Shown here in pieces: positions 8,315 to 38,157 of a DNA stretch of 64,000 nucleotides. Position numbers and translations under genes: made by a program. The first letter of the stretch is position 1. Every line of letters begins with the position of its first letter. The stretch lies in assembly GCA_951812955.1 (NCBI GenBank), contig OX638340.1, positions 1,920,001 to 1,984,000 of the forward strand, read 5' to 3'. The notes under the pieces are model-generated. The model made no database searches. It saw only the letters and a list, made by a program, of their open reading frames with translations, and had not been told where the DNA came from. The stretch is from an uncultured Gemmatimonadota bacterium. GTDB lineage: Bacteria > JAAXHH01.

Positions 8315-8406
8315 TAGAGCGAAGACACAACCATTGAATCCCTACGGAAGTCTCAATGACAACTCCGGTAGATGTCTTTACTACACAACCGTGGGAGTGG
8401 AATAGT

Positions 8407-9171: not shown

Positions 9172-9219
9172 CATATCTCTGGCGAAGACAACACCGCCTG
9201 TTTAGACATAAAGGGAGGG

Positions 9220-10506: not shown

Positions 10507-10532
10507 GCCCGTGCCGGACGCGGTTTTGCGGA

Positions 10533-11491
10533 TCAGGCCGCGCCCAGATACCCAGCGAGTTGAGCGGGCATGATGTTCCCGCCGCTGAGCAGAACCACGA
10601 CTTTCTTGCCTTCCAGCGAAACGATGCCGTTCAACAACGCTGCTACGCCCACGGCGCCGCCCGGTTCAACCACGAGCTTGGTTGCCCCGATGAGGTACTT
10701 CACCGCGTCGATCGCCTGCGCGTCGGAAACCAGGACCATTTCATCCACGTAGGCCATTACGTGTTCGAAGGTAAGGTTGCCGGGGCGCGGCGCCACGAGC
10801 GAGTCGCACACCGTGTTCGGTTCCTGTACCTCGCAGATCTCTTTCTTCAGAAAAGATTGATAAACCGCTTGTGACCCTTCGGGTTGCACCCCGATCACTT
10901 TCACCGCGGGGTTCAGCGTCTTCACGGCCGTGGCGACACCGCCGATAAGGCCGCCGCTACTCACGGGCACGATGACCGCGTCCAGATCCTGTGCCTGCGC
11001 CATGATCTCGGCGCCGATGCTGCCGTGACCCCGAACGACGTTTTCGTCCTCCCACGTGTTGATCGCGGTGATTCCCCGTTCTCTGCCCAGCCGGCCCAGC
11101 GTGTCCCACCGGGCCTGGTTGTGGTTCTCGCACAGAACCGCTTCGCCCCCGTAGTCCCTGGTGCGCCGGATCTTGTACGGCGAGGTTTTCTCCATCATCA
11201 CTATGGCGGTTGGTATCTCGAGCAAAGTTCCCATGAAGGCGAAGGCCGTGGCGAAGTTGCCGGAGGACGAAATGGCGGCGCCTTTTTCCTTCTGAACATC
11301 TGATAGGCGGTTCAGGATGGTAAATGCTGCTCGCGTCTTATACGATCCGGTCACCTGCAGGTTCTCCGCCTTGAACCAGACGTCCGCGCCCGATAGATCG
11401 GAGACCGATGGAGACCGGAGGAGGGGCGTGTATACGATCTCCGGTGGTAGTTCCCGCCGTGCCTGTTCGATTTCTACCAACGTGACCATCA
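10533..11491 (-). CDS. threonine/serine dehydratase (PLP-dependent, fold type II)
   Basis: 'FKAENLQVTGSYKTRAA' PLP-lysine motif, 'SSGNFA', glycine-rich 'VSSGGLIGGVA'; true start set at MMVTLV (GGAGG RBS) rather than the 444-aa track ORF. Confidence 0.75.
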
Positions 11492-11633
11492 TGATACCTC
11501 CGGTTCGCTCAACGTCCCGGGTTGTGTCCGTGTCCGGTGGCCCACGGCAGACAGTTCGACCGACTGTTCCGCTTCCGGACAATCTGTTCAGCCAACTTGC
11601 GGAGTCAAGCGATTTTAACCTGTAACAAGGCAC

Positions 11634-11693
11634 AGGACATCCGGCGCAACAGCTCAGGACATCCGGCGCAAAGGTGCGGGACATCCGACGCAA
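11634..11693. promoter_or_regulatory. three direct repeats GGACATCCGGCGCAA spaced 22 bp (plus a fourth GGACATCC at 11725), upstream of the 11879 gene
   Basis: Repeats at 11634-11649, 11656-11671, 11678-11693; two-helical-turn spacing typical of response-regulator binding sites. Confidence 0.4.
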
Positions 11694-11878
11694 GGCAGCC
11701 AAAGAAAACACGGAAAGGTCTGTCTGGACATCCCGGTCATGAACGCCTATATTGCGCCCTTCGTTGTCACCTGGCGCTTCAGTTGAAGAAACAGGGGCAC
11801 TGAATTGTAGAATATAAGATCGAACGTTGCTGTCTGTATCTGGGGAACCAAACTCGTTGTTCGACACTGGAGGATTGA

Positions 11879-19984: not shown

Positions 19985-20070
19985 GAAGAAGGCTCCGTTC
20001 CTCGGCGCTAGCCGGGTGATGCAGGGCCGCGCCCTGTGGATCACCCTTCCGGCTCATGCCGGATGAAGCG

Positions 20071-21918: not shown

Positions 21919-22406
21919 GCCGCGTTCCCTCCCTCGATGGACTGCAGATAGGAAGCATTGACCTTTTCGGCCCAGCCACCCAGCCAGTCGGCCGATTCGC
22001 TCTCGGTGTATTCGATCGCGCCGGTGGGACAGGCGACCGCGCAGGCGGGATTGCCGTCGCACAGATCGCACTTGAAGGCCTTCTGCGTATCCGGATTGTA
22101 GAACACCGTGCCGAAGGGACAGGCAATGGTGCACAACCCGCATCCGACGCAGTTTGCATCGGCCACGACCTTGGCGCCGGTATCCGCGTCGACACTGATG
22201 GCGTTAACGGGGCAGGCCGTCATGCACCAGGCTTCGTCGCACTGAAAACAGGTGTACGGCGCGTAACTGGCCTGCTCATCGAAAATGTTCACGCGAATCA
22301 GCGACCGGGATGGTTGAAACATGCCGGTCTGCACCCAGGAACATGCCAGTTCGCACTGCATGCACCCGGTGCATTTTTCGGGTATAATGCGTAGAGATTT
22401 AGCCAT
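21915..22406 (-). CDS. 4Fe-4S multi-cluster ferredoxin (AOR electron acceptor)
   Basis: Four CxxCxxCxxxCP-type cysteine clusters; first gene of minus-strand AOR operon. Confidence 0.8.
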   Translation of the reverse strand: MAKSLRIIPEKCTGCMQCELACSWVQTGMFQPSRSLIRVNIFDEQASYAPYTCFQCDEAWCMTACPVNAISVDADTGAKVVADANCVGCGLCTIACPFGTVFYNPDTQKAFKCDLCDGNPACAVACPTGAIEYTESESADWLGGWAEKVNASYLQSIEGGNAA

Positions 22407-23301: not shown

Positions 23302-24123
23302 ATGTCCGCCAAGGATCCCGCCCAGACTTACCGCATGCACGACGCCAATCGCCTTCACTGGGACAAGTCCGCCGGTTACTGGGCTGATATGCGCGAGCGG
23401 GACGGAATGTGGCGCCGCTGTCCGCTGGAACCCGAATTGGGATTCGCGGGCGGCGCCTTCGAGTTGATCGGATCCTTCGCCGGCGACCTGGAAGGAAAGG
23501 AAGTATGCGTCGTCGGCAGCGGGGACAATCATGCCGTCTTCGCCCTGGCGGGCATGAAGGCCCAGGTCACTTCCATCGACATATCGGAAAGGCAACTGGA
23601 AACAGCTTCCGAACGCGCGAAGCACCTGGGCCTGGCGATCGACTTCGTCCAGGCAGACGTGATGGACCTTAAGCCGCTTTGTGACAGGAAGTTCGACCTG
23701 GTCTGCTCGACCAACGGTTTCTTCGTCTGGATCGCGGATCTTCGTGCGGTATTCGAGGAGATCTTTCGCATCCTGAAACCGGGCGGACACTACGTTTTCT
23801 ACGATGTACATCCCTTCCAGAGACCCTGGAAAGACGGGAATCGGACGGTCGAAGTGGACAAACCTTACTGGCAAACCGGACCGTTACTAGACGAAAAAGA
23901 GGGCACCTTCGAATTCAACTGGACGCTCGGCGACCTGCTGAATCCGTTGGCGGATTCGGGATTCGTCCTGGGGCGTATCCTGGAACATCCCGCCGGGAAT
24001 TCGAGCTTCTGGGAAGGATCTTCCTACTTGCCCGGGGAGAAAGACAGCTTGCTCGACTGGAAGGAGAATCCCAGGGCCGCCCTGCCGGTCTGGCTTTCGG
24101 CGGCTCTGCAGCGACCGGGATAG
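23302..24123 (+). CDS. class I SAM-dependent methyltransferase
   Basis: Motif I 'VCVVGSGDN'; paralog of 36389..37201. Confidence 0.7.
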   Translation: MSAKDPAQTYRMHDANRLHWDKSAGYWADMRERDGMWRRCPLEPELGFAGGAFELIGSFAGDLEGKEVCVVGSGDNHAVFALAGMKAQVTSIDISERQLETASERAKHLGLAIDFVQADVMDLKPLCDRKFDLVCSTNGFFVWIADLRAVFEEIFRILKPGGHYVFYDVHPFQRPWKDGNRTVEVDKPYWQTGPLLDEKEGTFEFNWTLGDLLNPLADSGFVLGRILEHPAGNSSFWEGSSYLPGEKDSLLDWKENPRAALPVWLSAALQRPG

Positions 24124-24197
24124 CTCCTGGAGGTCCGACCATACAGCATGGCTATTTTAGTTCAGCAATCCTTTGAATCACTATCCCCGGATGGGCC

Positions 24198-24797
24198 ATG
24201 GGCATGAACGGCGTCGCATACTACCGCGGCCTGCCCATTGGCCGCCGGATCCACGTCACCGGAAACAGTTGTTCCGGGAAATCCACCCTGGCGAACCAGT
24301 TGGCGGCCGCGCTCGAGGTCCCCCGGGTAGAGTTGGACGCCCTCAACTGGCAGCCCGGATGGGTCAGCCTGGCTGATACGGAACCGGAGGAACTGGAATG
24401 TCGTATGACGGTAGCCACGCATGGTGAAGCCTGGGTGGTCTCCGGCTCCTACATGGGGTTTTCCCGGAAAGTCTTCTGGCCGCGCGTGGAGACGGTCGTC
24501 TGGCTGGACCTGCCGAGATACCGGCTTATCTGGCGCGTGCTGATTCGGAGTTGGAAACGCTGGCGGTCGAAGGAGTTGCTATGGGGAACGAATTACGAAC
24601 GATTCTGGCCCAACCTCAAGGTATGGAACCGGGAAGACTCGCTGATCTGGTGGATCATTACGCAGCAGCGCAGAAAGCAGCAGCGCATGCATGCCCTGAT
24701 GGGCGATCCGGCCTGGAACCATATCACGTTCATCCGGCTCGGGTCCGCGGCCGAGATCGACGCGTTCGGGAGGGAAGTAGGGCTTTCAAATGACTGA
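24198..24797 (+). CDS. P-loop NTPase, adenylate-kinase-like (FlaR / topology modulation protein family)
   Basis: Walker A 'GNSCSGKST', 'LDALNWQPGWV' matching FlaR-type kinases. Confidence 0.65.
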   Translation: MGMNGVAYYRGLPIGRRIHVTGNSCSGKSTLANQLAAALEVPRVELDALNWQPGWVSLADTEPEELECRMTVATHGEAWVVSGSYMGFSRKVFWPRVETVVWLDLPRYRLIWRVLIRSWKRWRSKELLWGTNYERFWPNLKVWNREDSLIWWIITQQRRKQQRMHALMGDPAWNHITFIRLGSAAEIDAFGREVGLSND

Positions 24798-24996
24798 ATG
24801 GGACCCTTCGATCCTTTTCAAACGCCGATTAGATAGTACGGCTCTATCAGCGTACATATCCATCTGCTCCGCGCCTTACCTTTCAAACACATACGCTTGC
24901 CTAATCAGATTCAGATACGAGTAGAACAGAAGACGTATCAGGCTAATTCAAAATTAAACTTTGATTTGGCCTAATTTGATGTTTAACTTGCAGATT

Positions 24997-26181
24997 ATGA
25001 TTAAACGAGACCTTGCCGAGGAGTTGAAAAAGGCGGCACGGCGGTTCCCTTCAATCACGCTTACCGGACCACGGCAAAGTGGGAAGACCACACTGTGTCG
25101 AGCGCTATTTCCCCGTCTGCCCTACGCGACCCTTGAAGCGACGGACGTACGCTCTTTTGCAAGGGATGATCCCCGGGGGTTCCTGGCTCAGTTCGCCGGA
25201 GGCGCGATCATCGACGAGGTACAGCGCGTCCCCGACTTGCTGTCCTATTTGCAGGGCGTTATCGACGAAGAACCGGCGCCCGGCCGTTGGATTCTGACGG
25301 GTTCGCAGAACCTGTCTTTGCTCGAATCGGTCAGCCAATCGCTGGCCGGAAGGACCGCCATATACCATCTGCTTCCCTTGAGCCGATGTGAGATCCTGCG
25401 CTTTGACCGATATCCAGTCAGTCTCGAAGAGACGCTGTTCGCCGGGACGTACCCACGGGTTTTCGATCGCGGACTTGAACCGGCTGACTGGTTCAGGTCC
25501 TATGTCGCCACGTACGTCGAGCGTGACGTGCGCTCCACTAACAACGTAGGGGACCTGACGACGTTCCAACGATTCGTAGAGCTCTGCGCCGGGAGAACGG
25601 CGCAACTTGTCAACTATTCGTCACTGGCCAACGACTGCGGCATATCACAACCGACAGCCAAGGCGTGGCTCAGCATACTCGAGACCAGTTTTCTCGTTTT
25701 CCGCCTGCCGGCATTTCACTCGAATCTGCGAAAGCGACTTGTGAAGATGCCCAAACTGCACTTCTACGATACGGGTCTCGTCTGCTGGCTGCTGGGAATA
25801 CGCACGCCCGATCAACTGCGAAGCCATCCGTTGCGGGGTTCCGTCTTCGAAACCTGGGTTGTCTCGGAAATCACGAAACACAGACTCAACCGCGGCGAAT
25901 CGCCGAGGCTAAGTTTCTATCGCGATCGCAATGGCGTCGAAGTCGATCTCATCATCGAACAACCTTCTCATCGAACACTGGTCGAGGCAAAGTCGGGCGA
26001 AACGGTATCCGCGAATCTGTTCGCCGGAGCGCAGAGGGTCCAGAAACATATCACCCGGCCAACCCGCCCGGATTCCATAGCCGTGGTCTACGGCGGCGAC
26101 CAGTTCCAACATCGAACGCCGGGGTCTCTGGTACCCTGGAGTGGGCTTCACGAAGCGGATTTCTGGAAAACGGGGTCCTGA
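24997..26181 (+). CDS. AAA ATPase with C-terminal DUF4143 domain (COG1373-type)
   Basis: Walker A 'GPRQSGKTT', Walker B 'IIDEVQ'; C-terminal DUF4143-like region; start taken at MIKRDLAEEL. Confidence 0.7.
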   Translation: MIKRDLAEELKKAARRFPSITLTGPRQSGKTTLCRALFPRLPYATLEATDVRSFARDDPRGFLAQFAGGAIIDEVQRVPDLLSYLQGVIDEEPAPGRWILTGSQNLSLLESVSQSLAGRTAIYHLLPLSRCEILRFDRYPVSLEETLFAGTYPRVFDRGLEPADWFRSYVATYVERDVRSTNNVGDLTTFQRFVELCAGRTAQLVNYSSLANDCGISQPTAKAWLSILETSFLVFRLPAFHSNLRKRLVKMPKLHFYDTGLVCWLLGIRTPDQLRSHPLRGSVFETWVVSEITKHRLNRGESPRLSFYRDRNGVEVDLIIEQPSHRTLVEAKSGETVSANLFAGAQRVQKHITRPTRPDSIAVVYGGDQFQHRTPGSLVPWSGLHEADFWKTGS

Positions 26182-26228
26182 TGAGTCGGCTCGGTTTGCC
26201 GGATCCCAAACCGGTGCTTTACCGCATC

Positions 26229-26762
26229 ATGCACCTGGCGGTCTGCGTCGCCATAGTGGTATCCTTACCTGCCGCCGCCCAGGAAACAGCGGAGAATAAC
26301 ACCATGTTCTGGTCGACGACGCTGAAGATGATCCGTGCGAAGTTCCCCGGGGTCGCCCAGCTTTCCACCGACAGCCTGCAGGTTTGGCTCGAAGCGGCGC
26401 CGGACCGGCCGGGCCGGGAAAGCCCGTTGCTTCTCGACGTGCGGGAAAAGGAAGAATACGAGGTCAGCCACCTGGAAGGCGCCCTGCTCGCCACCTCGGA
26501 AAAAGAAGCACTGCAGGCGCTGGAAGACGTTCCCCCGGACCAGCCCGTCGTGCTGTACTGTTCCGTGGGCTACCGCTCATCGGAAATGGCCGGCTATCTG
26601 GAGAAGAAGGGGTTCAGGAAAGTCTTCAACCTGGAGGGGTCGATCTTCGCCTGGGCGAACGAGGGACGGCCCGTATACCGGGGCGACGATCGCGCGCATG
26701 TCGTCCATCCCTACGACCGCGTATGGGGCAAGCTGCTGAAGAAGGCGCTTCGGGCTAGGTAA
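26229..26762 (+). CDS. secreted rhodanese-like domain protein
   Basis: Signal peptide 'MHLAVCVAIVVSLPAAAQE'; rhodanese active-site loop 'CSVGYRSS'; an alternative start at 26181 overlaps upstream stop (TGATG). Confidence 0.65.
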   Translation: MHLAVCVAIVVSLPAAAQETAENNTMFWSTTLKMIRAKFPGVAQLSTDSLQVWLEAAPDRPGRESPLLLDVREKEEYEVSHLEGALLATSEKEALQALEDVPPDQPVVLYCSVGYRSSEMAGYLEKKGFRKVFNLEGSIFAWANEGRPVYRGDDRAHVVHPYDRVWGKLLKKALRAR

Positions 26763-26814
26763 GCCGAGGCTATTCGATTTTGGCTGTTGCATTGCTCCCT
26801 TTGGCCTAGTCACG

Positions 26815-26898
26815 AGAAAGGTGGATTGTTGACACGGAAAGGATGGTTCGTTGAAGAGTGGTACATTGTTGAAGCGTAACAGACGAACCGGGGCGGTT
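26815..26898. repeat. copy A of an ~85-bp imperfect direct repeat (partner at 33894..33976)
   Basis: ggtggattgttgacacggaaaggatggttcgttgaagagtggtacattgttgaagcgtaacagacgaaccggggcgg versus copy B; roughly 85% identity by eye. Confidence 0.5.
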
Positions 26899-27150
26899 TC
26901 CCTAATCGATCGGCTCGGGTTCCCTGAACTGCGCTGACGTGACGAGCCAAGTCGCTAATTCAAAGGGTGATCCGTCTAAACGCGTTGACAGGATGGTTCT
27001 CAAATGCTTATAGTCCGGTAGAGAACCACTCAGTTGTATCTCGGCCTCATGCGGTCACGTATTGCGCAGTCCAAAACCAGTAAAATGGCCGTGCGAACTG
27101 CCGATCATGGTATGTTACAGCACACATGCGATGACAAGCGAACGATTAAC

Positions 27151-28098
27151 ATGAACCATTCGCCAACCGATACGTCCGCGCCGACAGGTACGCTCGCGCC
27201 AACCAGGCACGACCCTATCGAAGTTTCTCCGATACGGGCGGTGAACGTGGCTTTGGTCCCTCAACGAAGTCCGCTGCGGTACCCCGGTGGAAAGACGTGG
27301 CTGATTCCGCATATCCGGTTCTGGCTCGGCAAGATCGACCCTTCGCCTCGACTTCTGATCGAACCCTTCGCCGGCGGCGGGATCGTCTCCCTGACAGCGG
27401 TCATGGAAGGACTGGCCGAGCGGTGCATCATGGCGGAACTGGACCCCGACGTGGCTGCTTTCTGGCAGGCGGCGCTCAGGTCCGGACCTGAGCTCTGCGA
27501 CAAGGTGCTGCGCTTCCGACCAACGCGGGAAGCCGTCGAAGCCGTGGCGAGTATCAGACCGAGCGACCCGGTAGACCATGGTTTCCGCACGCTCGTGCTC
27601 AACCGAACGCGAAGGGGTGGCATTCTGGCTCCCGGCGCGGCGCTCAGTCGGGCGGGAGAAAACGGGAAGGGCGTCGCGTCCCGCTGGTATCCCGAAACCA
27701 TCGTAGGCCGTTTACGAGAGATCGCGGAACACGCCGACCGCATCGGCTTTCGCGAAACCGACGGCATCGGGTTGTTGGAGGAGTTGCTGGAAGCACGCGC
27801 GGGATCGGCGCTGGAGAACCCTTCCGACCCGGTGGTCTTCGCCGACCCTCCGTACACGGCCGGCGGCAAGCGCGCGGGAAGGCGGCTGTACACCCACAAC
27901 GAGATCGACCATCACCGGTTGTTCGAACTGCTTGCGGACAGCGGTGCGCGTTTCCTGATGACCTACGACAGGTCGTCCGAGATCGTGGCTCTCAGCCGGA
28001 AGCATGGATTCCACGCGGTACAGGTGACCATGAAGAACACCCATCACGCACGGATACCGGAACTGATCATCACCCCCGAACCGGTGTTCGTCAGTTGA
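27151..28098 (+). CDS. D12-class (Dam-like) N6-adenine DNA methyltransferase
   Basis: 'RYPGGK' motif I region and 'FADPPY' catalytic motif IV; start taken at MNHSPTDT (track ORF begins 27034). Confidence 0.8.
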   Translation: MNHSPTDTSAPTGTLAPTRHDPIEVSPIRAVNVALVPQRSPLRYPGGKTWLIPHIRFWLGKIDPSPRLLIEPFAGGGIVSLTAVMEGLAERCIMAELDPDVAAFWQAALRSGPELCDKVLRFRPTREAVEAVASIRPSDPVDHGFRTLVLNRTRRGGILAPGAALSRAGENGKGVASRWYPETIVGRLREIAEHADRIGFRETDGIGLLEELLEARAGSALENPSDPVVFADPPYTAGGKRAGRRLYTHNEIDHHRLFELLADSGARFLMTYDRSSEIVALSRKHGFHAVQVTMKNTHHARIPELIITPEPVFVS

Positions 28099-28973
28099 GT
28101 TCCCGTTACGGCATCGCGGAATGGTACGGGTTGCCATTCCCCTATCTCCCACCTGCTGCCCGCCATCATCTTGCAAAAAAAGCGTTACGGGAAGACCCCA
28201 ATGCTCCCGCGTGTCCGTTTCAAAACGGCCGGCCTCCATGCCGAAAGCGTGGCGGAATATGTTCCCTTGTTCGCTATGAACGGGATTCGGACGGAAGGCT
28301 TGGCTTGCCAAAAGGAAATCCGGTCATCGTTTGTCCGTCCCGATTCGAGGAAGAGCAACTGCTCGTTACCTGGTTGGCCGAGATCGTTGGCTTTGGACCG
28401 GACGAGGCGATGATCGCTCGCGAAGTAGCCTTCATGGAAGGAACCAGCACGGAGAGACCGGCTGGAAAAATCGATCTAGTCGTCGCCAGGGCCTCCAATG
28501 ACGATCTGAAATGGTTTGGACTGGAAATACAAGCCGTCTATTTCTCAGGTCAAGGCATGCCGTCCGAGTTCGCCAACCTACGGGACGACGATCATCGAAG
28601 ACCACCGTTTCCAAACGCGGTCCGTAGACCGGACTGGCGCTCTTCGAGCGCAAAGCGCCTCATGCCGCAGTTGCAAATCAAAGTGCCGACGCTACGCCGA
28701 TGGGGTTCGAAACTCGCCGTGTCGGTAGACCGGCCGTTTTTCGATTCGATTGGTGGTCCCAGTGCGCATCCCAGCCAGGACCTCAACGATGGGGACATCA
28801 TCTGGTTGATCCCGGAGTTGAAGCGGGAAGCCGGTGGTAACTTCAGGCTCACTCGGGGACATTGGGAAGTGCTCACGTTGGAGGATACGACCCGGAAACT
28901 CCTTGCGGCGGAAACGATCCGGCGGGAAGCGTTTGAGCAGGAGCTCCGCAGCAAACTCGAAGCGCTTCGGTGA
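28095..28973 (+). CDS. NotI-family type II restriction endonuclease
   Basis: N-terminal alignment to R.NotI ('IAEWYG' vs 'IAEFFG', 'CPF', 'GICSL' vs 'GVCVV', 'VCPSRF' vs 'VCPNRA', Cys4 metal site); TTG start overlapping MTase stop (TTGA). Confidence 0.6.
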   Translation: MSSRYGIAEWYGLPFPYLPPAARHHLAKKALREDPNAPACPFQNGRPPCRKRGGICSLVRYERDSDGRLGLPKGNPVIVCPSRFEEEQLLVTWLAEIVGFGPDEAMIAREVAFMEGTSTERPAGKIDLVVARASNDDLKWFGLEIQAVYFSGQGMPSEFANLRDDDHRRPPFPNAVRRPDWRSSSAKRLMPQLQIKVPTLRRWGSKLAVSVDRPFFDSIGGPSAHPSQDLNDGDIIWLIPELKREAGGNFRLTRGHWEVLTLEDTTRKLLAAETIRREAFEQELRSKLEALR

Positions 28974-29073
28974 GGCAGCGGACGACACCCGGGATACTGG
29001 GGTTCAAGATCGACGACTCGGTGTTAACCTTATGTCATCGGATGTGTAGTGCACCCCAAAATGGGACAAGTAG

Positions 29074-29950
29074 TTAAGCTACAGTTTTAACACGTGTCAT
29101 CCTCTGCTCGAACTCGACCGGCGGTCTGTAGTCCAGGGCCGAGTGCAAGCGCTTGCGATTGTATAGTTTGTCGATGAAGTAGCCGATGCGTGATCGGGCT
29201 TCTTCCAGGGATTCGTACTCGTAGAGATAGACCTCCTCGTATTTGAGCGTCCTGATGAAGCGCTCTGCCCTGGCGTTGTCATAGGGGTTGCCTTGCCGGC
29301 TCATGCTGATCCGTATGCCAGCGTTCTTGAGCGTGTCTACATAGGCTTTCGAGGCATACTGCACGCTCCGGTCGGAGTGATGCACAAGCCCTTTCTGCGC
29401 TGGTCTGGCGGCCAGGGCGCTGTCGAGGGCGTTCAGGGCCAAGGTGGCATCGAGGGTTCGATCCAAGGCCCAGCCGATGCATCTTCTGCTGCAGGCGTCA
29501 AGGATCACCGCCAGATAGACCCATTCGCGAGCCAGCCTTATGTAGGTGATGTCGGATACCCAGAGCTGGTTGACATTGGTTACGTTCAGTTCCGGGACCA
29601 GGTTGGCGTAAACGGCGCGGTCGTGATTCGAGTCGGTGGTCGCTACGAAGGCTCGGCGCCGCAGGGCAAGCAGGTTGTCCTCGCGCATGAGACGCAGAAC
29701 GCGCTTGTGGTTCACATGGTATCCCATACGCTTTAGCGCGCGGGTCATGGGACGGTAACCGTAGGCGGGTCAGGAAAGGGCGAGCCTGTGGATCTGATCC
29801 CGCAGTGCAAGGTCCGGATCCGTACGACCACGACGACCGCGGTAGTAGCTGGATCGACCGATCGAGAGCGTCCTGCACAGACGCTTGACCACGGCGCGGT
29901 CGGTGGACGCCTTTGATTGAGCGACCAGGCAGATCATGAGCTTCCTCCAT
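29074..29950 (-). pseudogene. IS3 transposase orfB (integrase core) interrupted by an in-frame TGA
   Basis: 'LCRTLSIGRSSYYRGRR...IHRLALS*PAYGYRPMTRALKRMGYHVNHKRVLRLMRE...DITYI...DRSVQYAS...YNRKRLHSALDYRPP' DDE/rve motifs. Confidence 0.7.
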
Positions 29951-30259
29951 TGCCTCGGGCTGAGCGTGGGATCTCCTCGAGCCGACTCAAGACTTTTTTT
30001 AACACATCGTTCTCCATGGTCAGTTGACCGACCTTGCGCTCAAGGGCCTAGGGTCCGGGCCTCGTCACTTACCGCCTTGCCATCCATTACCGGGGAAAGC
30101 GCGGTCGCCCTGGCGGCGAAGCTGCTGACGCCACCTGTGGATCAGCGTAGGATGGACCTGGTGTTCTCGGGCCAACTGGCTGATGGATTTGCCCGAATCG
30201 GCTTCCTGGAGAACCTGGAGCTTGAACTCGCGGGTGAACTGACGGCGTTTCAGGGACAT
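29951..30259 (-). pseudogene. IS3 transposase orfA (HTH), frameshifted
   Basis: 'MSLKRRQFTREFKLQVLQEADSGKSISQLAREHQVHPTLIHRWRQQL' then stop; leucine-zipper part 'ALERKVGQLTMENDVLKKVLSRLEE' continues in another frame. Confidence 0.65.
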
Positions 30260-30328
30260 GGGGTACCTCCTCGTTCAGAAGGAAGCTTAACTCACTGTCC
30301 CGGACAAGGGTGCAGTACACAGAACACG

Positions 30329-31252
30329 TTACAGAGGAAGTTTGTTGTAGCTGATTCCGAATCCAAACCGCACATCGTAAGAGCTCTGAGTCGGGACGGT
30401 GCTAAGCTCTTCGATATTCGAAGTATCGATCTTAGAGCCGCCCTGCATCGTCGGACCTTGACTTATATGAGCACCAAAGGTGAGCCAAGTAGACTTTCCG
30501 ATCTCCAAACTTGGACCGAAGATATATTCTAGAACCGTTCCCGGTTCGCCTCCGATTTCTGCGAGCGTTCCTAAACTCAAGTTTACATCCCAACCATTAC
30601 CAATCCGCAAAACGTGCGAATTAACAACGGTTCCTGGCATCACTTGGAAATCCGACCAACTTGTGAAGAAACCGACGCTAATAGAGAACGGGGACTCGCA
30701 AACGAACGTGACCAAAGGATACTCATTCTTCTTGGCGGCTTCGTTTTTCTCCCCGTCCTCATTATCTTGCGGGAACAAGTCGAAAACCACCAAGGTCCAC
30801 TCTTCTTTTCGAGATTTGAAGTCGCACTCGATCGACTGTGAGATTTCAGACTTGGTGCCCTTGTGCATCTCAATAGATGATTGAAGGTATCTTTTTAATG
30901 CCGTAATCTGATCGTTCGCTTGACTCCACTTACTTTCTGCTAATTCAATCTCTACAAGAGCACTGCCAGTCTGCGTCAACGCACTGTCAATCTGTGCCAA
31001 CAAAACACTGTCAGGTAATTGCAATGCACCGCCAAGTGCCTCCCTGTTGTTCCTATTTGCCAAGTTCATCAAACGATCCTGAAGGGAAACTTGGCGATCC
31101 TGAAGGGAAGATATCTGCGGCCAGTTTCCCTTCTCAATTTCACCTATGAGTTGACCGCTTCTGTATATCAGTGTGTCGCTTGGAAAATACATATTACTAA
31201 TATCAATGAAATCGCGCAGTTTCTTAATCTGATTAGAGGTTACTTGACGCAA
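30329..31252 (-). CDS. hypothetical protein (AT-rich foreign gene; coiled-coil N-terminus, beta-rich C-terminus)
   Basis: 307-aa ORF with markedly lower GC than surroundings; no recognisable motifs. Confidence 0.45.
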   Translation of the reverse strand: MRQVTSNQIKKLRDFIDISNMYFPSDTLIYRSGQLIGEIEKGNWPQISSLQDRQVSLQDRLMNLANRNNREALGGALQLPDSVLLAQIDSALTQTGSALVEIELAESKWSQANDQITALKRYLQSSIEMHKGTKSEISQSIECDFKSRKEEWTLVVFDLFPQDNEDGEKNEAAKKNEYPLVTFVCESPFSISVGFFTSWSDFQVMPGTVVNSHVLRIGNGWDVNLSLGTLAEIGGEPGTVLEYIFGPSLEIGKSTWLTFGAHISQGPTMQGGSKIDTSNIEELSTVPTQSSYDVRFGFGISYNKLPL

Positions 31253-31767
31253 GCTGTTAGCCTGGTTTTGTGCAACGTCGGTTTCTTAAGCAAAGAGGCG
31301 GTTTCTCTAAATAAAGAATCGATGCCTTCAGGCGGTGTGCCAACGTTGCTTATATTAAACGAGGAATTGACGTTTTGAAACACACTATCAGCCTGGATTT
31401 CATTCGTCATCTCCCATTGGCATAGCTGGCGCAGGTAGTTGAGCGTATTGGGGGCGTCAAGCGCCTCAACCTGACGGCGGATTTCGTATCTATAGCGAAC
31501 TAAGTTAAGATCCACTACTGTGATGGATGCTTTGTAATGAACTTGCACTTCACCATAGGAACCTTGGGGCCTTTGAAGGGAGTAAGTCAAATCTTGTCCG
31601 GCAGCTACCGGCATATCTGATCCGACAAACAACAGCACACCGGCGATGTGGAAAAGAGCATTTAATAGACGATACTTCGTCCGAGATCCCCGTGGTGGTC
31701 CTAAGGAAACGAGCGGTATTCCTGAAATGACGGTTCTCACGTTTCGGTTCTCCGACATCCCTTTCAT
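31240..31767 (-). CDS. hypothetical protein with N-terminal signal-anchor
   Basis: 175-aa ORF overlapping downstream gene by 13 nt (operon); hydrophobic segment 'LLNALFHIAGVLLFVGS'. Confidence 0.4.
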   Translation of the reverse strand: MKGMSENRNVRTVISGIPLVSLGPPRGSRTKYRLLNALFHIAGVLLFVGSDMPVAAGQDLTYSLQRPQGSYGEVQVHYKASITVVDLNLVRYRYEIRRQVEALDAPNTLNYLRQLCQWEMTNEIQADSVFQNVNSSFNISNVGTPPEGIDSLFRETASLLKKPTLHKTRLTACVK

Positions 31768-31849
31768 AAACGACCTCCTGTAATTGGCCTCAAAAACTGG
31801 ATCTCGTCAAAGGTGGATGTACCATAGCAGACAACCCGGCACGCGGAAG

Positions 31850-32245
31850 GCCGATGGTATGTTGAAAAGACGCAGACGGGCCCAGCGTCCGGTGCAAGTT
31901 TCAGGTGGCTCTCGAAGCGCTCATGGGACTGAAGGCCATCAGCCAGTTGGCCGCGGAGCATCAAGGCCAACACAATCAGATCACCAAATGGAAACGCCGG
32001 TTACTCGATGAGGGCGATCAAGTTTTTAACCACAGGCGACCGGTCCCGATGGCGTTCAAGATGCCATAGTGGACCAGCTCTACGAGCAGATCGGACGCTT
32101 GAAGATGGAACTGAAGTGGCTAAAAAAGTTGCCCTTTCAACGCGTCACAGACGCCTGATGATCGATGTCGATACGCCTCGGCTTTCCATACGCTGTCATT
32201 GCGAACTGATGGATCTTTCAAGGTCCAGCTTCTACCAAGAATAGG
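31850..32245 (+). mobile_element. fragment of a second IS3-family element (orfA remnant plus first ~20 codons of orfB), frameshifted and truncated
   Basis: Frames give 'KFQVALEALMGLKAISQLAAEHQGQHNQITKWKRRLLDEGDQVF', 'VDQLYEQIGRLKMELKWLKKL', 'LSIRCHCELMDLSRSSFYQE*'. Confidence 0.55.
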
Positions 32246-32273
32246 ACTTGCATAACATTAGCATGTCGGGCAG

Positions 32274-33062
32274 TTACAATGTATTACGGATCCTGTTCGC
32301 TATACACTTGAATACCCATTCATTAGGATGGAGTTCATCATCCCAGAAATTCTTGTAATGACCTGGACTGTTACTAAGAAGATCACGAACATCTACGTAA
32401 CGTACATAGTCATAGTTTACTGCCAACAACTGAAGCATTTCGTTGAACTTGTCTATCAGTACCTCCATCACCCTGGTAGCAAACCAAAGGTCATCGTGAC
32501 TTTTTTTAATATTGTATCCCTTTTTCCTGAATACCGGATAGAGCCAAGGCCCCTTTACCTTTATCCAAAACTTGAACTTGCGTCCATCGGGAACTGGGTG
32601 GCCATATCCATGGACGATTATCGGAATATCACTTTGGGGCCAATACACTAAACAAGCTCCCCTTATAACTTCGATAAGTTGCGAGTAGTAAGTACGAAGA
32701 TAGCAGAATATCATTTTCTGGACTTCATTCGTGTCTAACGCACTATTTACATCTGATGCTGATGTACGATCGTTAAGCATTTTCTTCAGCTTCTTTGTCA
32801 GATCATTGCCGCCACCGGAGAGGAGGACTGCTTTGGGTTTGCTATTGAGTTTGTGTAGTTTTTGTAGTTTTTTAAGAAGGGCTTTGTGTTGTTCTTGTGC
32901 ATAGGCCATATCCTTGAGCGTGTCACCGTGTTTAGCTACACTTCTCACTTTGTATCCCATGCCCCTTAACCCCTCTAATACATCATCAGCTTGATTTGTA
33001 GAGTTTGGCAAATCGAACCATGAATCACCCTCCGCTACCAAGATTGGTTTTTGATTTGGCAT
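32274..33062 (-). CDS. SGNH/GDSL-family hydrolase (AT-rich foreign gene)
   Basis: Block I 'VAEGDSWFD', block III 'GGGND', block V 'DELHPN'; low GC. Confidence 0.55.
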   Translation of the reverse strand: MPNQKPILVAEGDSWFDLPNSTNQADDVLEGLRGMGYKVRSVAKHGDTLKDMAYAQEQHKALLKKLQKLHKLNSKPKAVLLSGGGNDLTKKLKKMLNDRTSASDVNSALDTNEVQKMIFCYLRTYYSQLIEVIRGACLVYWPQSDIPIIVHGYGHPVPDGRKFKFWIKVKGPWLYPVFRKKGYNIKKSHDDLWFATRVMEVLIDKFNEMLQLLAVNYDYVRYVDVRDLLSNSPGHYKNFWDDELHPNEWVFKCIANRIRNTL

Positions 33063-33184
33063 GTTAGTTCTCCTCTATAGGTGGATTACTATAGGAACCT
33101 CTGATCAAGTCTACCCGCCCCGGGGAAGCTGATGTCACTCATCTTTCGCGGACGGTTTACGGTTAGATATTCAGATTGATTCCT

Positions 33185-33532
33185 TTAGTACAGATCGACC
33201 CGGAAGGCGCCTCGCGTCAAGGCCTCCTGCAGTCTCGTCTGGTGGCTGCGATGACGCGGATGTCCGATGATACTGCCCGGACGCTTCCCAAGGGACGATA
33301 GGTCTTCTCGGAGAGGACCCGCAGCGTGGATCGCCTTGGCGATCAGTTCCTTGCCGGCCCCCGTTTCGCCCGTGATCAATACGGGCATATCCTTTGATGC
33401 GTAACGGTAGGCTCTCGCCGGGATCCATTTCATCTCGTGGCTCCTGTGCTTGATCGCATCGAAGGCGCCGTGCGCTTCATGCCCTTGCGCTGGTTCCGGC
33501 GGATTCTGGCTCGTCATCAGGGAGTACGCCAT
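33185..33532 (-). pseudogene. fragment of a sigma-54-dependent transcriptional activator (start of AAA+ domain only)
   Basis: 'VLITGETGAGKELIAKAIH' Walker A of the sigma-54 interaction domain, then divergence and stop after about 115 aa. Confidence 0.5.
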
Positions 33533-33893
33533 GGTTGCTCCGGATTAAGGCAGGTAAACCTAGCAAAAATCGGACCCGGTATTTTCGTGTTTTTCATGTA
33601 AAGTGGTATGAATTACAATATGATGGAAAAAGAGTGACTTGTGTGTGAATTATCCGCTCAGCAAGAAGAATATTGCGCGAATTTTACGCATAGTGTATCA
33701 TATCGCCATCACGGCCAGCTCTCGATCGGCCTCCGGCGGGCATTCCAGCGCGTCCGCCCAACCTGAGCGTTTCACCCTCAGAAGGCGATCTATCCGGCCG
33801 GCCTCCGACGGGCGTTCCGGCGAGTCGACCTCCGGCCGCAGGAGCGCCGCATGCCGCAGGGATCACGGGCAAGGGTCACGGGCAAGGGTCACG

Positions 33894-33976
33894 GGAAGGA
33901 TGGATCTGTGACACGGAAAGGATGGACCGGTGAAGCGTGATACATCGGTGAAGCGTAAAGACGGACCGGGGCGGGA
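33894..33976. repeat. copy B of the ~85-bp imperfect direct repeat; overlaps the 5' end of the hybrid kinase gene
   Basis: ggatggatctgtgacacggaaaggatggaccggtgaagcgtgatacatcggtgaagcgtaaagacggaccggggcgg. Confidence 0.5.
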
Positions 33977-36305
33977 GATCGAGGCGCTGCGCGAACGCAT
34001 CTCGATGCTGAGCGCGGCAAGCCTGCGCATCAGCGCGAGCCTGGACCTGGAGACCGTCCTGCACGAGGTCATCAACAGCGCCCGCGCGCTGATCGAGGCT
34101 CGTTACGGCGGCATCGTCACCATCGACGAGTCCGGGCAGCCCCGGGACTTCATCACCTCCGGTTTCACCGACGCGGAGCACCGCCAAATGGCCGACTGGC
34201 CCGACGGGCCCAGGCTCTTCGAGCACTTCCGCGACCTCAAGGGCGTGCTGAGACTGCCGGATGCGCGCGCCTACGTGCGCTCGCTCGGCTTCGCCTCGGA
34301 CCGGCTGTCGTCCGGCACCTTCCTGGGCACCCCGATGCGCCATCGCGGCCTGCACGTCGGCAACTTCTATCTCGTCGAGAAGGAAGGCGGAGCGGAGTTC
34401 ACCAGCGAGGACGAGGAGATCCTGGTGCTGTTCGCCTCCCAGGCTGCGACGGCCATCGCCAATGCCCGCACGTACCAGGCCGAGCAGCGCGCCCGGGCCG
34501 ACCTGGAGGCCCTGGTCGAGACCTCGCCGGTGGGCGTCCTGGTCTTCGATGCCGGGACCGGCCGGCTCATGTCGTCCAATCAGGAGGCGAAGCGGATCGT
34601 GGAGGGCCTGCGCATGCCGGGCCGTCCCATGGAGGCGCTGCAGGAGGTGATCACCTGCCGGCGCGCCGACGGGCGCGAGATCGCACTGGAGAAGTTGCCC
34701 CTGTCGCAGGTGCTGAACCGCACCGAGACGGTCCGGGCCGAGGAGATGGTGCTCTCGGTCCCCGACGGACGAAGCGTCACGGCGCTGATCAATTCCACGC
34801 CGATCCACTCGGAGCAAGGCGCTGTCGTGTCCGTTGTGGTCACCATGCAGGACCTGGCGCCGCTACAGGAACTGGAGCGATTACGGGCGGAGTTCCTTGG
34901 CCTGGTGAGTCATGAGTTGCGCACCCCGCTCACGTCGATCAAGGGCTCGGCGGCCACGCTGCTGGATGCCGCCCCGAAACTCGACCCGGCGGAGATGCGC
35001 GAGTTCTGCCGCATCATCCTCTCGCAGGCCGATCACATGCGCGTCCTGATCAGCGACCTGCTGGACGCGGGCCGCATCGACACGGGCACGCTGTCGGTGA
35101 CGCCCGAGCCCTCCGAGGTCGCCGCCCTGGTGGACCGGGCGCGGACCACGTTCCAGAGCGGCGGCGGCAGGCACCCCGTACTGATCGACCTGCCGCCCGA
35201 TCTGCCACGGGTCATGGCCGACCGGCAGCGCATCGAACAAGTGCTGAACAACCTGTTCGCCAATGCCGCGCGGCACGCTCCCGAGTCCTCTCCCATCAGG
35301 GTCTCCGGGGCGCGCGACGGGGTGCATGTCGCGGTCACGGTACGCGACGAAGGCGCGGGAGTAGCGCCCGACCGGCTCCCGCATCTCTTTCGGAAATATG
35401 CCGGGCTCGAGGGCGGCGACCGCGAGTCCGGGGCTGCCGGCTCGGGGCTCGGTCTGGCCATCTGCAAAGGGCTGGTCGAAACTCACGGAGGGCGTATCCG
35501 GGCCGAAAGTCCGGGCATGGGCCAGGGCACGCGCATCACCTTCACGATCCCGGTAGCCGCCGAGGCCGCCGAGGCCGCCCGAGAGCCGGTTCGTACCGAC
35601 CCGCAAGACACCGGAGAAACTGGCGAGCCGACGCGCATCCTCGTGGTCGACGACGACCCGCAGACGCTACGCTACGTGCGCGAAGCGCTCACGGCGGCCG
35701 GCTACTCCGCGCTCGTGACCAGCAACCATGACGAACTGGCGAGCATTATACACGCCGAGCGACCCGAACTGGTCCTGCTGGACCTGCTGCTGCCCGGCAC
35801 GGACGGTATAGCGTTGATGGAACGCCTGCCCGAACTGGCCGAACTTCCGGTCATCTTCATCTCCGCCTACGGACGGGACGAGACCATCGCGCGGGCGCTC
35901 GATACCGGCGCCGCCGACTACCTCGTCAAGCCCTTCTCGACGACCGAGCTCGTGGCGCGGATCCGGGCGGCGCTGCACAGACGGGCCGATCCCGACCCCT
36001 TCGTGCTGGGCGAACTCGCCATCCACTACGATCGGCGAAGGGTGAGCACAGGCGGTGTACGGGTCGACCTCACCGCCACCGAGTATGAGCTGCTGCGCGT
36101 CCTCTCGCTCAACGCGGGACGGGTTTTGACCTTCGCCACCCTGATGCGCCAGGTCTGGGGTACGCGCGCCTACGCCAATCCGAAGCTCGTGCGCGCCTTC
36201 GTCAAGAAGCTCCGCCACAAGCTCGGCGACAATGCAGACAAGCCTATCTACATCTTCAACGAGCGCGGGGTCGGCTACCGAATGGCCCAGCCGGCCGAAT
36301 CGTAG
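33930..36305 (+). CDS. single-polypeptide two-component system: GAF-PAS-HisKA-HATPase_c-REC-OmpR/PhoB-type winged-helix DNA-binding domain
   Basis: H-box 'LVSHELRTPLTSI', G-boxes 'GSGLGLAICKGLVETHGG', REC 'ILVVDDDP...DLLLPGTDG...KPF', trans_reg_C 'VDLTATEYELLRVL...RGVGYRM'; very GC-rich. Confidence 0.8.
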   Translation: MKRDTSVKRKDGPGREIEALRERISMLSAASLRISASLDLETVLHEVINSARALIEARYGGIVTIDESGQPRDFITSGFTDAEHRQMADWPDGPRLFEHFRDLKGVLRLPDARAYVRSLGFASDRLSSGTFLGTPMRHRGLHVGNFYLVEKEGGAEFTSEDEEILVLFASQAATAIANARTYQAEQRARADLEALVETSPVGVLVFDAGTGRLMSSNQEAKRIVEGLRMPGRPMEALQEVITCRRADGREIALEKLPLSQVLNRTETVRAEEMVLSVPDGRSVTALINSTPIHSEQGAVVSVVVTMQDLAPLQELERLRAEFLGLVSHELRTPLTSIKGSAATLLDAAPKLDPAEMREFCRIILSQADHMRVLISDLLDAGRIDTGTLSVTPEPSEVAALVDRARTTFQSGGGRHPVLIDLPPDLPRVMADRQRIEQVLNNLFANAARHAPESSPIRVSGARDGVHVAVTVRDEGAGVAPDRLPHLFRKYAGLEGGDRESGAAGSGLGLAICKGLVETHGGRIRAESPGMGQGTRITFTIPVAAEAAEAAREPVRTDPQDTGETGEPTRILVVDDDPQTLRYVREALTAAGYSALVTSNHDELASIIHAERPELVLLDLLLPGTDGIALMERLPELAELPVIFISAYGRDETIARALDTGAADYLVKPFSTTELVARIRAALHRRADPDPFVLGELAIHYDRRRVSTGGVRVDLTATEYELLRVLSLNAGRVLTFATLMRQVWGTRAYANPKLVRAFVKKLRHKLGDNADKPIYIFNERGVGYRMAQPAES

Positions 36306-36388: not shown

Positions 36389-37201
36389 TTAAACCCGCTT
36401 CTTCCGACCCACCAGGACCAGGTTCGCCGGCATTTTCTCAAGCGGCGCGCCGCCCTCCCAGTCCTGGTTCCCGTCACCGTACTCCTCCACGGCCAGGAGT
36501 TCGCATCCACTCTCGATCAGCGCGCGGATCATGTCCGAAACGGTCCAGTGGAATTCATAACTGGGGAGCGGACTGGGCGGTCCTTGGCGTCCTTGCGTAC
36601 CGGACGGCCCCGCACCCTCGGGCAGTTCCTCTGACCGGTCATAGGTAAAGGGACCGTGGTCGAAGTAATGATATTCCTGTTTCAGCGGCCCGGCGTCGAG
36701 TTTCCATAGCCTGCGGAACGGATGGTACTCGTTGACCATGAAGAGTCCGCCGTGTTTGAGAATCCGGATTCCCTCGCCGTAGTAGCGCTGCAGGTCGGAC
36801 ACCCAGACAGCAACGTGGCCTCCCGTGTAAACGATGTCGAAATGATCGTCCGGCAGTTCGTGCAGATCAGTCACGTCAGCCTGGAGAAACCGGATCGAGA
36901 GTCCAAGCTCACCCGCTCTTCCGGCGGCGATATCCAGCTGGGTCTGCGATATATCCACGGAGGTGACCCGCGCCCCGGCACCGGCCAGGGCAAAGGCCGC
37001 CAGGTTGTCTCCGCTGCCGAGCACGCAGACGGACCTTCCGGATACCTCGCCGAGGTATTTCAATTCGACGGCGTCCAGCACAAGATGGATGTTGTCCGGG
37101 ATGCTCCGCCAGTCCACCCTGGCGTCGATCTCCGCCTGCCATCCGGCGGAAACGGCGTCCCAGCCCCTGCGATTCGCCTCGTGCATGGGATGCTGGCTCA
37201 T
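36389..37201 (-). CDS. class I SAM-dependent methyltransferase (paralog of 23302..24123)
   Basis: 'VCVLGSGDNLAAFALAGAGARVTSVDIS...FLQADV...ILKHGG' colinear with 23302 protein. Confidence 0.7.
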   Translation of the reverse strand: MSQHPMHEANRRGWDAVSAGWQAEIDARVDWRSIPDNIHLVLDAVELKYLGEVSGRSVCVLGSGDNLAAFALAGAGARVTSVDISQTQLDIAAGRAGELGLSIRFLQADVTDLHELPDDHFDIVYTGGHVAVWVSDLQRYYGEGIRILKHGGLFMVNEYHPFRRLWKLDAGPLKQEYHYFDHGPFTYDRSEELPEGAGPSGTQGRQGPPSPLPSYEFHWTVSDMIRALIESGCELLAVEEYGDGNQDWEGGAPLEKMPANLVLVGRKKRV

Positions 37202-37204
37202 TTA

Positions 37205-37375
37205 CTTAAATCCTCCCAGCGACATCGATCCGCCCAGAGCTCTCCCGATTCAGGCACGCTGGTTCAGGGCCCTCCCGGTTCAGGCTCTCCCGCTCAGGGC
37301 CCGCTCGAGTCAGGGTCCGCCTGGCTTGACCCAGGTACTCCCGACTCAGGCACGCAGCCTCAGGTCCGCGCGGCT
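37205..37375. repeat. degenerate tandem array of about 17-18-bp units (consensus CTCCCGNTTCAGGCNCG, about 9 copies) between two methyltransferase genes
   Basis: Seen directly: ctcccgattcaggcacg ctggttcagggcc ctcccggttcaggctct cccgctcagggcccg ctcgagtcagggtccg ... ctcccgactcaggcacg. Confidence 0.45.
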
Positions 37376-38157
37376 CAGACTCTCCTGGCTACCCACACTT
37401 GCTCATGTCCATGCCGGAACGGTCCGCGTCGGAAGTCGCCGTATAGTGCCTCGACTTCGTAGCCACATACTTCGAGGAGGTACTGCATTTCGAAACGGTG
37501 CACGTAGCGCAGGTGTAGCGGGGTGGCAGTCTTCGAAAGTACACGGCCCTCGTCGTCCACTTCCTCGAAGAACCGGTGTTCCTCCAGCGTCTGCTCCAAC
37601 GGATCGTACCGGCGCGTATCCGATACCATGACGCGGCGTCCCGTTTCAGGATGCACGATCGATTCCATGTAATTGATGGTACCGGAAGGTCTCGACATGT
37701 ACGCCGCGATGATCTCGATGCTCGGATCGAAGATGTTGAACACCAGGCGCCCTTGCTCCGTCAGGTGTTCTCGGATGCGGGTCAAGGCCCGCCGCTGGTC
37801 GTCGGGGGTCATCATGTGAAGGAACGCGCGGTACGGTATGATGGCCAGCGGGAAACGCCGTTCCAGGCTGAATGTCCGCATATCGCCTTCGACGATCTGA
37901 ATGCGCCGCTGTGTATCGTCCGGCAGCGCGTCGATCTTCCGACGCGCCACATCCAGCATCGCCGGCGCCCGATCCAGTCCGACGATGGACGTACCCGACT
38001 CGGCGATCGGGATCGTGATCCGGCCGGTTCCGCAACCGATTTCCAGCACGGGGCCGTCCGCCCTGGCGGCTTCTTCCACGTAGAATGCCTCGTCGCCTTC
38101 GAGCCCCGTCGAGTAGCTGTCGTATATCCCGGCGTCCGTCCTGTCGTATTCTGACAT
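37375..38157 (-). CDS. class I SAM-dependent methyltransferase
   Basis: Motif I 'VLEIGCGTGR', 'LTEQGRLVFNIF'. Confidence 0.7.
   Translation of the reverse strand: MSEYDRTDAGIYDSYSTGLEGDEAFYVEEAARADGPVLEIGCGTGRITIPIAESGTSIVGLDRAPAMLDVARRKIDALPDDTQRRIQIVEGDMRTFSLERRFPLAIIPYRAFLHMMTPDDQRRALTRIREHLTEQGRLVFNIFDPSIEIIAAYMSRPSGTINYMESIVHPETGRRVMVSDTRRYDPLEQTLEEHRFFEEVDDEGRVLSKTATPLHLRYVHRFEMQYLLEVCGYEVEALYGDFRRGPFRHGHEQVWVARRV

Follow-up and report, generated by a model that had tools for sequence, protein, structure and literature searches.

An 88-bp direct repeat across a restriction-modification cargo hotspot in an uncultured Gemmatimonadota bacterium: probable relic of a kinase gene start

In a 64,000-nucleotide stretch of contig OX638340.1 (positions 1,920,001 to 1,984,000) from an uncultured Gemmatimonadota bacterium, hereafter the window, about 7 kb of mosaic DNA with a type II restriction-modification (RM) cassette, a decayed IS3-family element and further cargo lie between two imperfect direct repeats, the second of which (copy B) coincides with the start of a gene for a hybrid sensor kinase/response regulator. 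Does this repeat pair mark the attachment sites of a single integrated island, as an earlier note on this DNA had proposed, or did it arise in some other way? The analysis presented here favors the second answer. The first repeat (copy A) is probably an inert fossil of a kinase 5' end, derived from a kinase allele of the same lineage and left behind by multi-step recombination at a hotspot, and the interval is, as far as the compared sequences indicate, the product of several events and not of one element inserted at the repeat.

The repeat unit is 88 nt long; copy A occupies positions 26809-26896 and copy B positions 33888-33975, with an offset of 7079 bp. Pairwise alignment gave 73 identities in 87 aligned positions plus one 1-nt indel, and blastn reported 83% identity over 88 columns (E = 4.5e-17), confirming the two repeats of about 85 nt that the earlier note had placed at essentially these coordinates. 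The longest identical run, of 17 nt (TGACACGGAAAGGATGG), is the Shine-Dalgarno (SD) region of the kinase gene and is conserved in all leaders. The paired motifs noticed before within each copy are two tandem duplications present in both copies, one with a 22-nt period over the SD region and, as read directly from the sequence, one of 18 nt over the start codon and five codons. Of the two copies, B shows these internal duplications more cleanly. A gene conversion in which copy A had donated the 18-nt unit to copy B was considered and rejected, as the two 18-nt units differ at 4 positions. The iteron-like nature suggested for the repeats did not hold, because the internal motifs are a tandemly duplicated ribosome-binding site, start codon and N-terminal codons: the 22-nt and the 18-nt motif occur in only two units each, which overlap SD, start and coding sequence, and no rep gene was found.

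Copy B provides the first 15 codons of the kinase gene (MKRDTSVKRKDGPGR), which agrees with the approximately 15 codons previously assigned to it. The orthologous kinases, with 78-98% identity, have matching N-terminal tails (MKRKDGPGR, MKSDTSLKRNDEPGR in protein P0009, MKRDTSSSAKAKD...), and the conserved kinase protein starts directly after the tail, at EIEALRERIS. Several strains lack one of the 18-nt units, so that their kinase starts six codons later. On this evidence copy B is predicted to be the functional 5' end of the kinase gene, comprising its ribosome-binding site, its start codon and a putatively unconstrained N-terminal tail. Copy A can be read as MKSGTLLKRN, after which 1 nt is inserted; its similarity to the kinase gene is gone after codon 15, with unrelated DNA beyond, and tblastn searches for other kinase fragments in the window found none, nor any kinase body behind copy A.

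The repeat was also considered as a member of a dispersed family of short repeats, such as repetitive extragenic palindromes (REP) or miniature inverted-repeat transposable elements (MITE). In the 64 kb searched, the 16-mer core has exact matches at copies A and B only, its approximate matches being a 2-mismatch internal repeat in copy B and two 3-mismatch sites at chance level (0.74 expected by chance), and no further copies of a REP/MITE-like family beyond A and B were found in the window. A leader model run with nhmmer in three stages over all but the last of 97 fetched loci matched only at orthologous kinase starts and at copy A, which is why we regard the kinase leader as lineage-specific, as judged from sequence matches. 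A strict leader pattern gave no match in 185,579 species genomes and six in metagenomes, five of them by chance and one true, the leader of an orthologous kinase. The dispersed-repeat model therefore fails for lack of other copies in the window, the fetched loci and the collection scans. Likewise, neither Rfam nor folding pointed to a structured cis-regulatory RNA: the repeat region had no Rfam match at E up to 1, and the four leaders folded no better than their shuffles (z = +0.25, -0.47, -0.02 and -0.96). A tRNA search found none at the locus.

How the interval was built became apparent from six related versions of the locus, obtained by kinase search and contig look-ups of public assemblies (L001, L003, L088, L094, L095 and L096). 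L003, whose kinase is 85% identical in protein and 89% in DNA sequence, is syntenic on both sides, with 485 bp from the rhodanese gene to the kinase gene and one leader; it is thus a relative without the island that keeps a single copy, as the earlier note had anticipated. Homology between the window and L003 ends at 26766 and restarts at 33614, at the AT-rich promoter region, to continue into the leader and the kinase. The approximately 440 bp before the single L003 leader (sigma-54 remnant, AT-rich promoter and GC-rich region) find their collinear counterpart upstream of copy B; that is, L003 9505-9957 corresponds to window 33614-33887 and not to the DNA left of copy A, which is located 46 bp past the rhodanese stop. 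Because the flank of the L003 leader matches the DNA upstream of copy B and not that of copy A, the 7 kb are not a single element that was inserted at the repeat.

The other versions agree with a composite origin. L001, with a 98% identical kinase, lacks copy A and has, between the same flanks, a different 6.6-kb cargo (an MmeI-type enzyme, a 125-amino-acid open reading frame (ORF) and two DUF1353 genes). Its homology to the window ends at 26769, so that according to blastn the homology of L003 and L001 stops 4-7 bp past the rhodanese stop codon. L088 has window 23337-30319 in common, comprising the rhodanese gene, the 42 bp that follow, copy A, a further 81 bp, the RM cassette and the IS3 element; hence the left 3.55 kb of the interval (copy A, RM and IS3; 26767-30319) are common to L088, and the right part differs, L088 having another SGNH-like gene there, at 67% identity, and an almost complete gene for the sigma-54 activator. 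L095 is collinear with the window across the whole 21-kb locus at 96.7% identity and has a single-unit leader B, L096 is collinear up to its contig end inside IS3 and has the left flank in common, and L094 is a further strain with the sigma-54 activator and a single-unit leader. L088 and L095, both of which read through to the kinase, differ from each other in their downstream parts. Copy A is identical in sequence in the four strains that carry it (the window, L088, L095 and L096), and the surrounding DNA is nearly so: the window has 12 differences only from L088 over 26756-29016 and 4 from L095 over 26750-29000. The 3' half of the rhodanese gene, next to this block, is unusually divergent among strains (82-89% identical). 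The same flanking genes thus stand on both sides in the window, L001, L003, L088 and L095, with different content between them: the interval from rhodanese to sigma-54 activator and kinase is a cargo hotspot flanked by core genes. The earlier description as a defence and cargo island is borne out to that extent by the strain-variable content in L001, L003 and L088.

We propose that the ancestral order would have been rhodanese gene, convergent sigma-54 activator gene, promoter, leader and kinase gene, and that the gap between rhodanese and activator would have served as the hotspot into which different strains took different cargo. One event may have brought in copy A, the RM cassette and IS3; a later one, the AT-rich insert and a different SGNH allele; and the ancestral activator gene would have eroded stepwise. 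This gene forms a decay series: L088 has it almost whole, L094 and L001 have it in part, the window and L095 have three short pieces of it, and in L003 it has nearly disappeared. Its coordinates are 14533-15551 in L088, 9123-9688 in L001, 189-808 in L094 and 9505-9715 in L003; it is divergent from the kinase gene, its nearly complete L088 version is frameshifted, and L003 keeps a few dozen codons. Copy A itself may go back to a recombination in which incoming foreign DNA was held at one end by its homology to the highly conserved kinase module and at the other was joined illegitimately at codon 15 of the kinase gene, displacing the resident 5' end; a second deletion would then have taken out the promoter region left of the stub. 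No recombinase would act on the repeats in this account, and a search of 26.8-34.0 kb for tyrosine or serine recombinase or replication genes (Pfam, NCBIfam and PADLOC; ORFs of at least 60 amino acids) found only the decayed IS3 DDE transposase. The end of the repeat was considered as the recombination boundary of the kinase body, but it can be so only approximately, the last difference between close strains being at 33948, 27 nt before the repeat end.

Several observations weigh against this reading. First, copy A needs at least two events for its formation, and no strain with an intermediate structure was present among the loci examined. In addition, no homologue could be detected for the 42 bp on its left or the 81 bp on its right: local alignments of both with the sigma-54/promoter region, made to probe a tandem duplication with subsequent deletion, scored no better than shuffles, and no homologue of the 42-bp spacer was detected outside the copy A carriers. 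The L003 site has lost most of the sigma-54 gene and thus is not a pristine ancestral state. Besides, the scope within the source genome was the 64-kb window, and further copies of the repeat elsewhere in that genome are possible. Finally, the full identity of copy A in four strains can be read as selection, although the adjoining RM block is as conserved as copy A, which counters this last point.

Among the alternatives, copy A could have been captured beside another kinase copy elsewhere and have come with a mobile block of 2.3-3.5 kb (the 42 bp, copy A, the 81 bp and the RM cassette, with or without IS3). The near-identical block of the four strains starts at 26756, takes in copy A and ends at IS3, and the kinase family is multi-copy in some genomes, both of which would suit a capture. 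Nevertheless, neither the loci examined nor the two collection scans yielded a second kinase with this leader type, no IS3-like end lies near 26767 (a third such end, as in a composite or one-ended transposon, was looked for there and none was found), and the sharp left edge would follow just as well from a later replacement of the rhodanese allele through recombination with donors that lack the block. We therefore consider a capture unlikely.

Direct repeats around RM genes have been classed as products of site-specific recombination, of insertion accompanied by a long duplication of the target, or of chance (Furuta, Abe, Kobayashi 2010, PMC2853133). By the criteria of that study, the present case resembles an RM-linked insertion with long target duplication in that R and M genes within an insert of less than 20 kb are bracketed by a direct repeat of more than 30 bp that a genome lacking the insert has only once, and copies A and B align to the same L003 sequence (84% for copy A and 83% for copy B); in L070 and L063, two kinase loci from other lineages described below, inserts are also flanked by long duplicated stretches of the kinase 5' region. 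Against this, the outer flank on the left lacks collinearity with the empty site, the insert contains IS3 and other cargo, a single event does not suffice, the promoter region to the left of copy A would have had to be lost in an extra deletion, and the repeats are 84% identical, compared with upstream-downstream identities of 92-100% (44/46 to 47/47 and 384/412 to 417/423) tabulated in PMC2853133. A long target duplication is for these reasons quite improbable as the origin of the pair.

It is harder still to sustain that copy A is a retained functional cis-element, for example a second operator bound by the OmpR-type DNA-binding domain of the kinase itself or a translated mini-ORF of 28 codons, which would put the RM genes under the control of the kinase. 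Its 22-nt internal direct repeat, its identity in four strains, its position 90 bp upstream of the RM promoter, the absence of a predicted terminator between rhodanese and copy A, and the presence of kinase-upstream repeats near surface-protein genes in L022, L042 and L063 could all be cited in favor. The repeat spans, however, SD region, start codon and coding tail and not a promoter, copy A is no better conserved than the 2.2 kb next to it, and the 81-bp spacer, which the mini-ORF crosses, has four substitutions relative to L088, at least two of which alter the mini-ORF peptide. Furthermore, a consensus promoter belongs to the RM cassette itself, and the cassette is found without copy A in L007, where a segment 87.8% identical to it (9826-11823) lies in an unrelated context between cysS and a helix-turn-helix gene; L097 has a related methyltransferase (MTase) gene without a restriction endonuclease (REase) partner in the same position as the L007 cassette, and neither copy A nor a kinase is found near the RM genes of L007 and L097. 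This control function would be very unlikely. The attachment-site explanation of the earlier note, in which a site-specific recombinase put one 7-kb island into the kinase leader and duplicated its attachment site, can draw on a direct repeat that brackets variable DNA, on the 17-nt identical core and on the single copy in a relative without the island, but we practically discard it, since no integrase or resolvase gene was found, the left flank of the single L003 copy (sigma-54 remnant and promoter) sits inside the supposed island beside copy B in place of the outer flank of an empty site, L001 lacks copy A and has a different island at this site, the 7 kb are a mosaic shared only in part with L088 and not present or absent as one unit, and the repeats are just 84% identical.

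Multi-step recombination at a hotspot, leaving copy A as a relic, can be placed among known phenomena. Chromosomal integration hotspots, or defence islands, between conserved core genes are a concept that comes from the comparison of bacterial pangenomes. The locus is like them in having the same flanks with an accessory content that varies per strain (RM and IS3, an MmeI-type RM gene with DUF1353 genes, or almost nothing) and in a raised allele divergence right at the borders; it departs from the usual hotspots in belonging to uncultured bacteria, in lying beside a horizontally spread kinase module, and in that a gene-start relic forms a direct repeat across it. Homology-facilitated illegitimate recombination, the one-sided homologous anchoring of foreign DNA, has been described in naturally transformable bacteria. 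The layout of a stub, foreign DNA, and a new upstream region joined to an intact conserved gene is what it would produce with the conserved kinase as the anchor, and L070 compared with L026 is a clean example; the window case needs the assumption of a further deletion. Copy A, the sigma-54 pieces and the IS3 stubs do not differ substantially from the gene remnants of variable regions, all of them being truncated, frame-shifted leftovers. The interval is, in sum, a new instance of known things, namely a cargo hotspot, a mobile type II RM cassette, an IS3 element and gene remnants, and the repeat is no new kind of element.

The kinase module has a wide distribution. One-chain GAF-PAS-HisKA-HATPase-REC-OmpR kinases with 60-86% protein identity occur in metagenome-assembled genomes (MAGs) of more than 10 phyla (L008-L087, compared with window 33560-36305), the labels of which include Latescibacterota, Gemmatimonadota, Alpha- and Gammaproteobacteria, Binatia, Terriglobia, Vicinamibacterales, Nitrospirales, Spirochaetia, Chloroflexi and others; many of the isolate names look sponge-derived, and one genome (OZ253547.1) has at least 4 copies of the family. 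The approximately 375-bp non-coding region upstream of the kinase is conserved at the DNA level across phyla, with BLAST clusters of 19 and 12 loci. Because this upstream region is also conserved in DNA sequence, promoter and kinase gene together appear to be a horizontally transferred unit. The AT-rich promoter region accompanies the kinase into non-syntenic loci, and among strains the promoter and kinase module is 98-99.5% identical, in contrast to neighbouring genes, which differ by 10-20%.

A comparison of every kinase locus with itself showed that duplicates of the 5' region close by the gene are common in other phyla; in several unrelated lineages a part of the kinase's 5' or upstream region is repeated at a distance of less than 10 kb. 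In L070 (5221-10025) a 4.3-kb insert stands at about kinase codon 57, L026 being the uninterrupted state; the L070 stub remains collinear with the left flank and with L026, and at its end the insert brings an upstream region and a 5' coding sequence of its own, which are divergent and fused to the body of the kinase gene. In L023 the kinase 5' region is duplicated in tandem over 1.06 kb (9789-11214), L032 has a decayed second copy (6914-7613), L057 an inverted copy (18393-19039) and L063 235-bp repeats around a CsgG-like gene (8043-9940); further partial copies of the 5' or upstream region are present in L022 (17684-17892) and L042 (1049-1239). Kinase 5' stubs beside inserts in other phyla would fit recombination anchored in the kinase with an illegitimate other end. 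It is tempting to speculate further that the kinase module acts as a portable homology anchor, through which one-sided recombination imports cargo such as RM and surface-protein genes, each event leaving a 5' stub, and that the repeats described here and those of L070, L063, L023 and L032 are the scars; we regard this generalization as doubtful. A kinase with its upstream region found across many phyla with repeated 5' stubs may merit a dedicated study.

For annotation, the locus means that an 88-bp direct repeat, convincing as it looks on either side of a defence island, can be the relic of a gene start and not an attachment site, and the two are told apart only by comparing strains with other cargo. 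It also offers a worked example of how a hotspot builds up in uncultured bacteria, through an RM cassette, IS3, later inserts and regulator erosion. The features of the interval and its flanks are collected in Table 1.

Table 1. Features of the interval between rhodanese and kinase genes and of its flanks (window coordinates)
Feature	Position	Strand	Evidence and remarks
Rhodanese-domain gene, left core flank	26166..26762	+	Pfam Rhodanese
Spacer, 42 bp	26767..26808		Present in L088, L095 and L096
Copy A, probable truncated, frame-shifted initiation region	26809..26896	+	SD-like GGAAAGGATGG, TTG start, about 15 codons, 1-nt insertion
Spacer between copy A and RM cassette, 81 bp	26897..26977		No homology in L007 or any other locus
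Type II RM cassette	26978..28976	+	Pfam, PADLOC, promoter scan
RM cassette promoter TTGACA-18-TATAGT	26985-27014	+	Promoter scan
D12-class N6-adenine MTase gene	~27154-28098	+	Pfam, PADLOC
NotI-family REase gene	28095-28973	+	Pfam, PADLOC
IS3-family element	29045..30321	-	Pfam rve/HTH_21; terminal inverted repeats TGTGTAsTGCACCC; frameshifted transposase
AT-rich segment, absent from L088	30322..32273	-	46% GC; two ORFs without family match
ORFs without family match	30329-31252 and 31240-31767	-	Overlapping; 307 and 175 amino acids
IS3-like orfA stub, weak	31896-32027	+	tblastn: 48% amino acid identity, E 4e-6
SGNH/GDSL hydrolase gene	32274..33062	-	Pfam Lipase_GDSL_2; 67% DNA identity to SGNH-like gene of L088
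Sigma-54-dependent activator remnant	33158..33532	-	N-terminal 27 amino acids plus residues 1-39 and 107-162 of L088 protein; Pfam, NCBIfam, tblastn
AT-rich conserved kinase promoter region	33560..33720	+	74-78% DNA identity to L003-L010; promoter-like hexamers
GC-rich, repeat-laden kinase 5' untranslated region (UTR)	33721..33887	+	Tandem Repeats Finder (TRF); 13-nt tandem repeat; repeats spaced 72 nt
Copy B, predicted working leader	33888..33975	+	SD-like GGAAAGGATGG, GTG start at 33930, first 15 kinase codons MKRDTSVKRKDGPGR
Hybrid sensor kinase/response regulator gene, right core flank	33930..36305	+	GAF-PAS-HisKA-HATPase_c-REC-Trans_reg_C (OmpR-type); Pfam and homologues

The gene inventory of the earlier note (MTase/REase pair, IS3 with inverted repeats, orphan genes, IS3 stub, SGNH hydrolase and sigma-54 fragment) was recovered in full. 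Its statement that the interval differs from its surroundings applies to 30322-33184, with 46% GC against 59% for the window, and not to the RM and IS3 parts, at 59-60%; the kinase gene has 68% GC. MTase P0121 is 100% identical to the window MTase. The orfA of IS3 is in three pieces in the window, orfA and orfB are uninterrupted in the L095 copy, and L009 has an IS3 copy at 83% identity. The two ORFs at 30329-31767 had no match in Pfam, NCBIfam, PADLOC or PHROGs, and the segment that contains them is present in L095 and not in L088. A split terminator hairpin, pairing 26758-26777 with 32168-32187, was judged to be due to chance, as one among 53 similar pairs.

Upstream of the kinase, TRF placed the 13-nt tandem repeat, with 3.2 copies, at 33858-33899 in the 5' UTR. 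Repeat numbers in 33721-33938 vary between near-identical strains, with 13-nt and 18-nt indels relative to L095, and such a change in repeat number shifts the start codon and alters the N-terminal tail by six residues. Conservation along the locus is uneven: the strains share 98.3-99.5% identity in the kinase coding sequence and approximately 98% in the DUF4143 ATPase gene, compared with 82-89% for the 3' half of the rhodanese gene (34000-36280 versus 26300-26760), and the methyltransferase genes downstream (36400-37500) differ by 10-40 positions per 100 bp, a patchwork of gene-specific conservation or recent exchange. Two further repeats of the window lie in coding sequence. Tandem paralogous aldehyde:ferredoxin oxidoreductase genes at 18601-22143, with 70-76% DNA identity at a distance of 1931 bp, are kept in all related strains, and periodic coding repeats of 54/108 nt in up to 9 copies at 7208-10194, with motifs like ...TCGGGCGGCGATATC..., suggest a large repeat protein.

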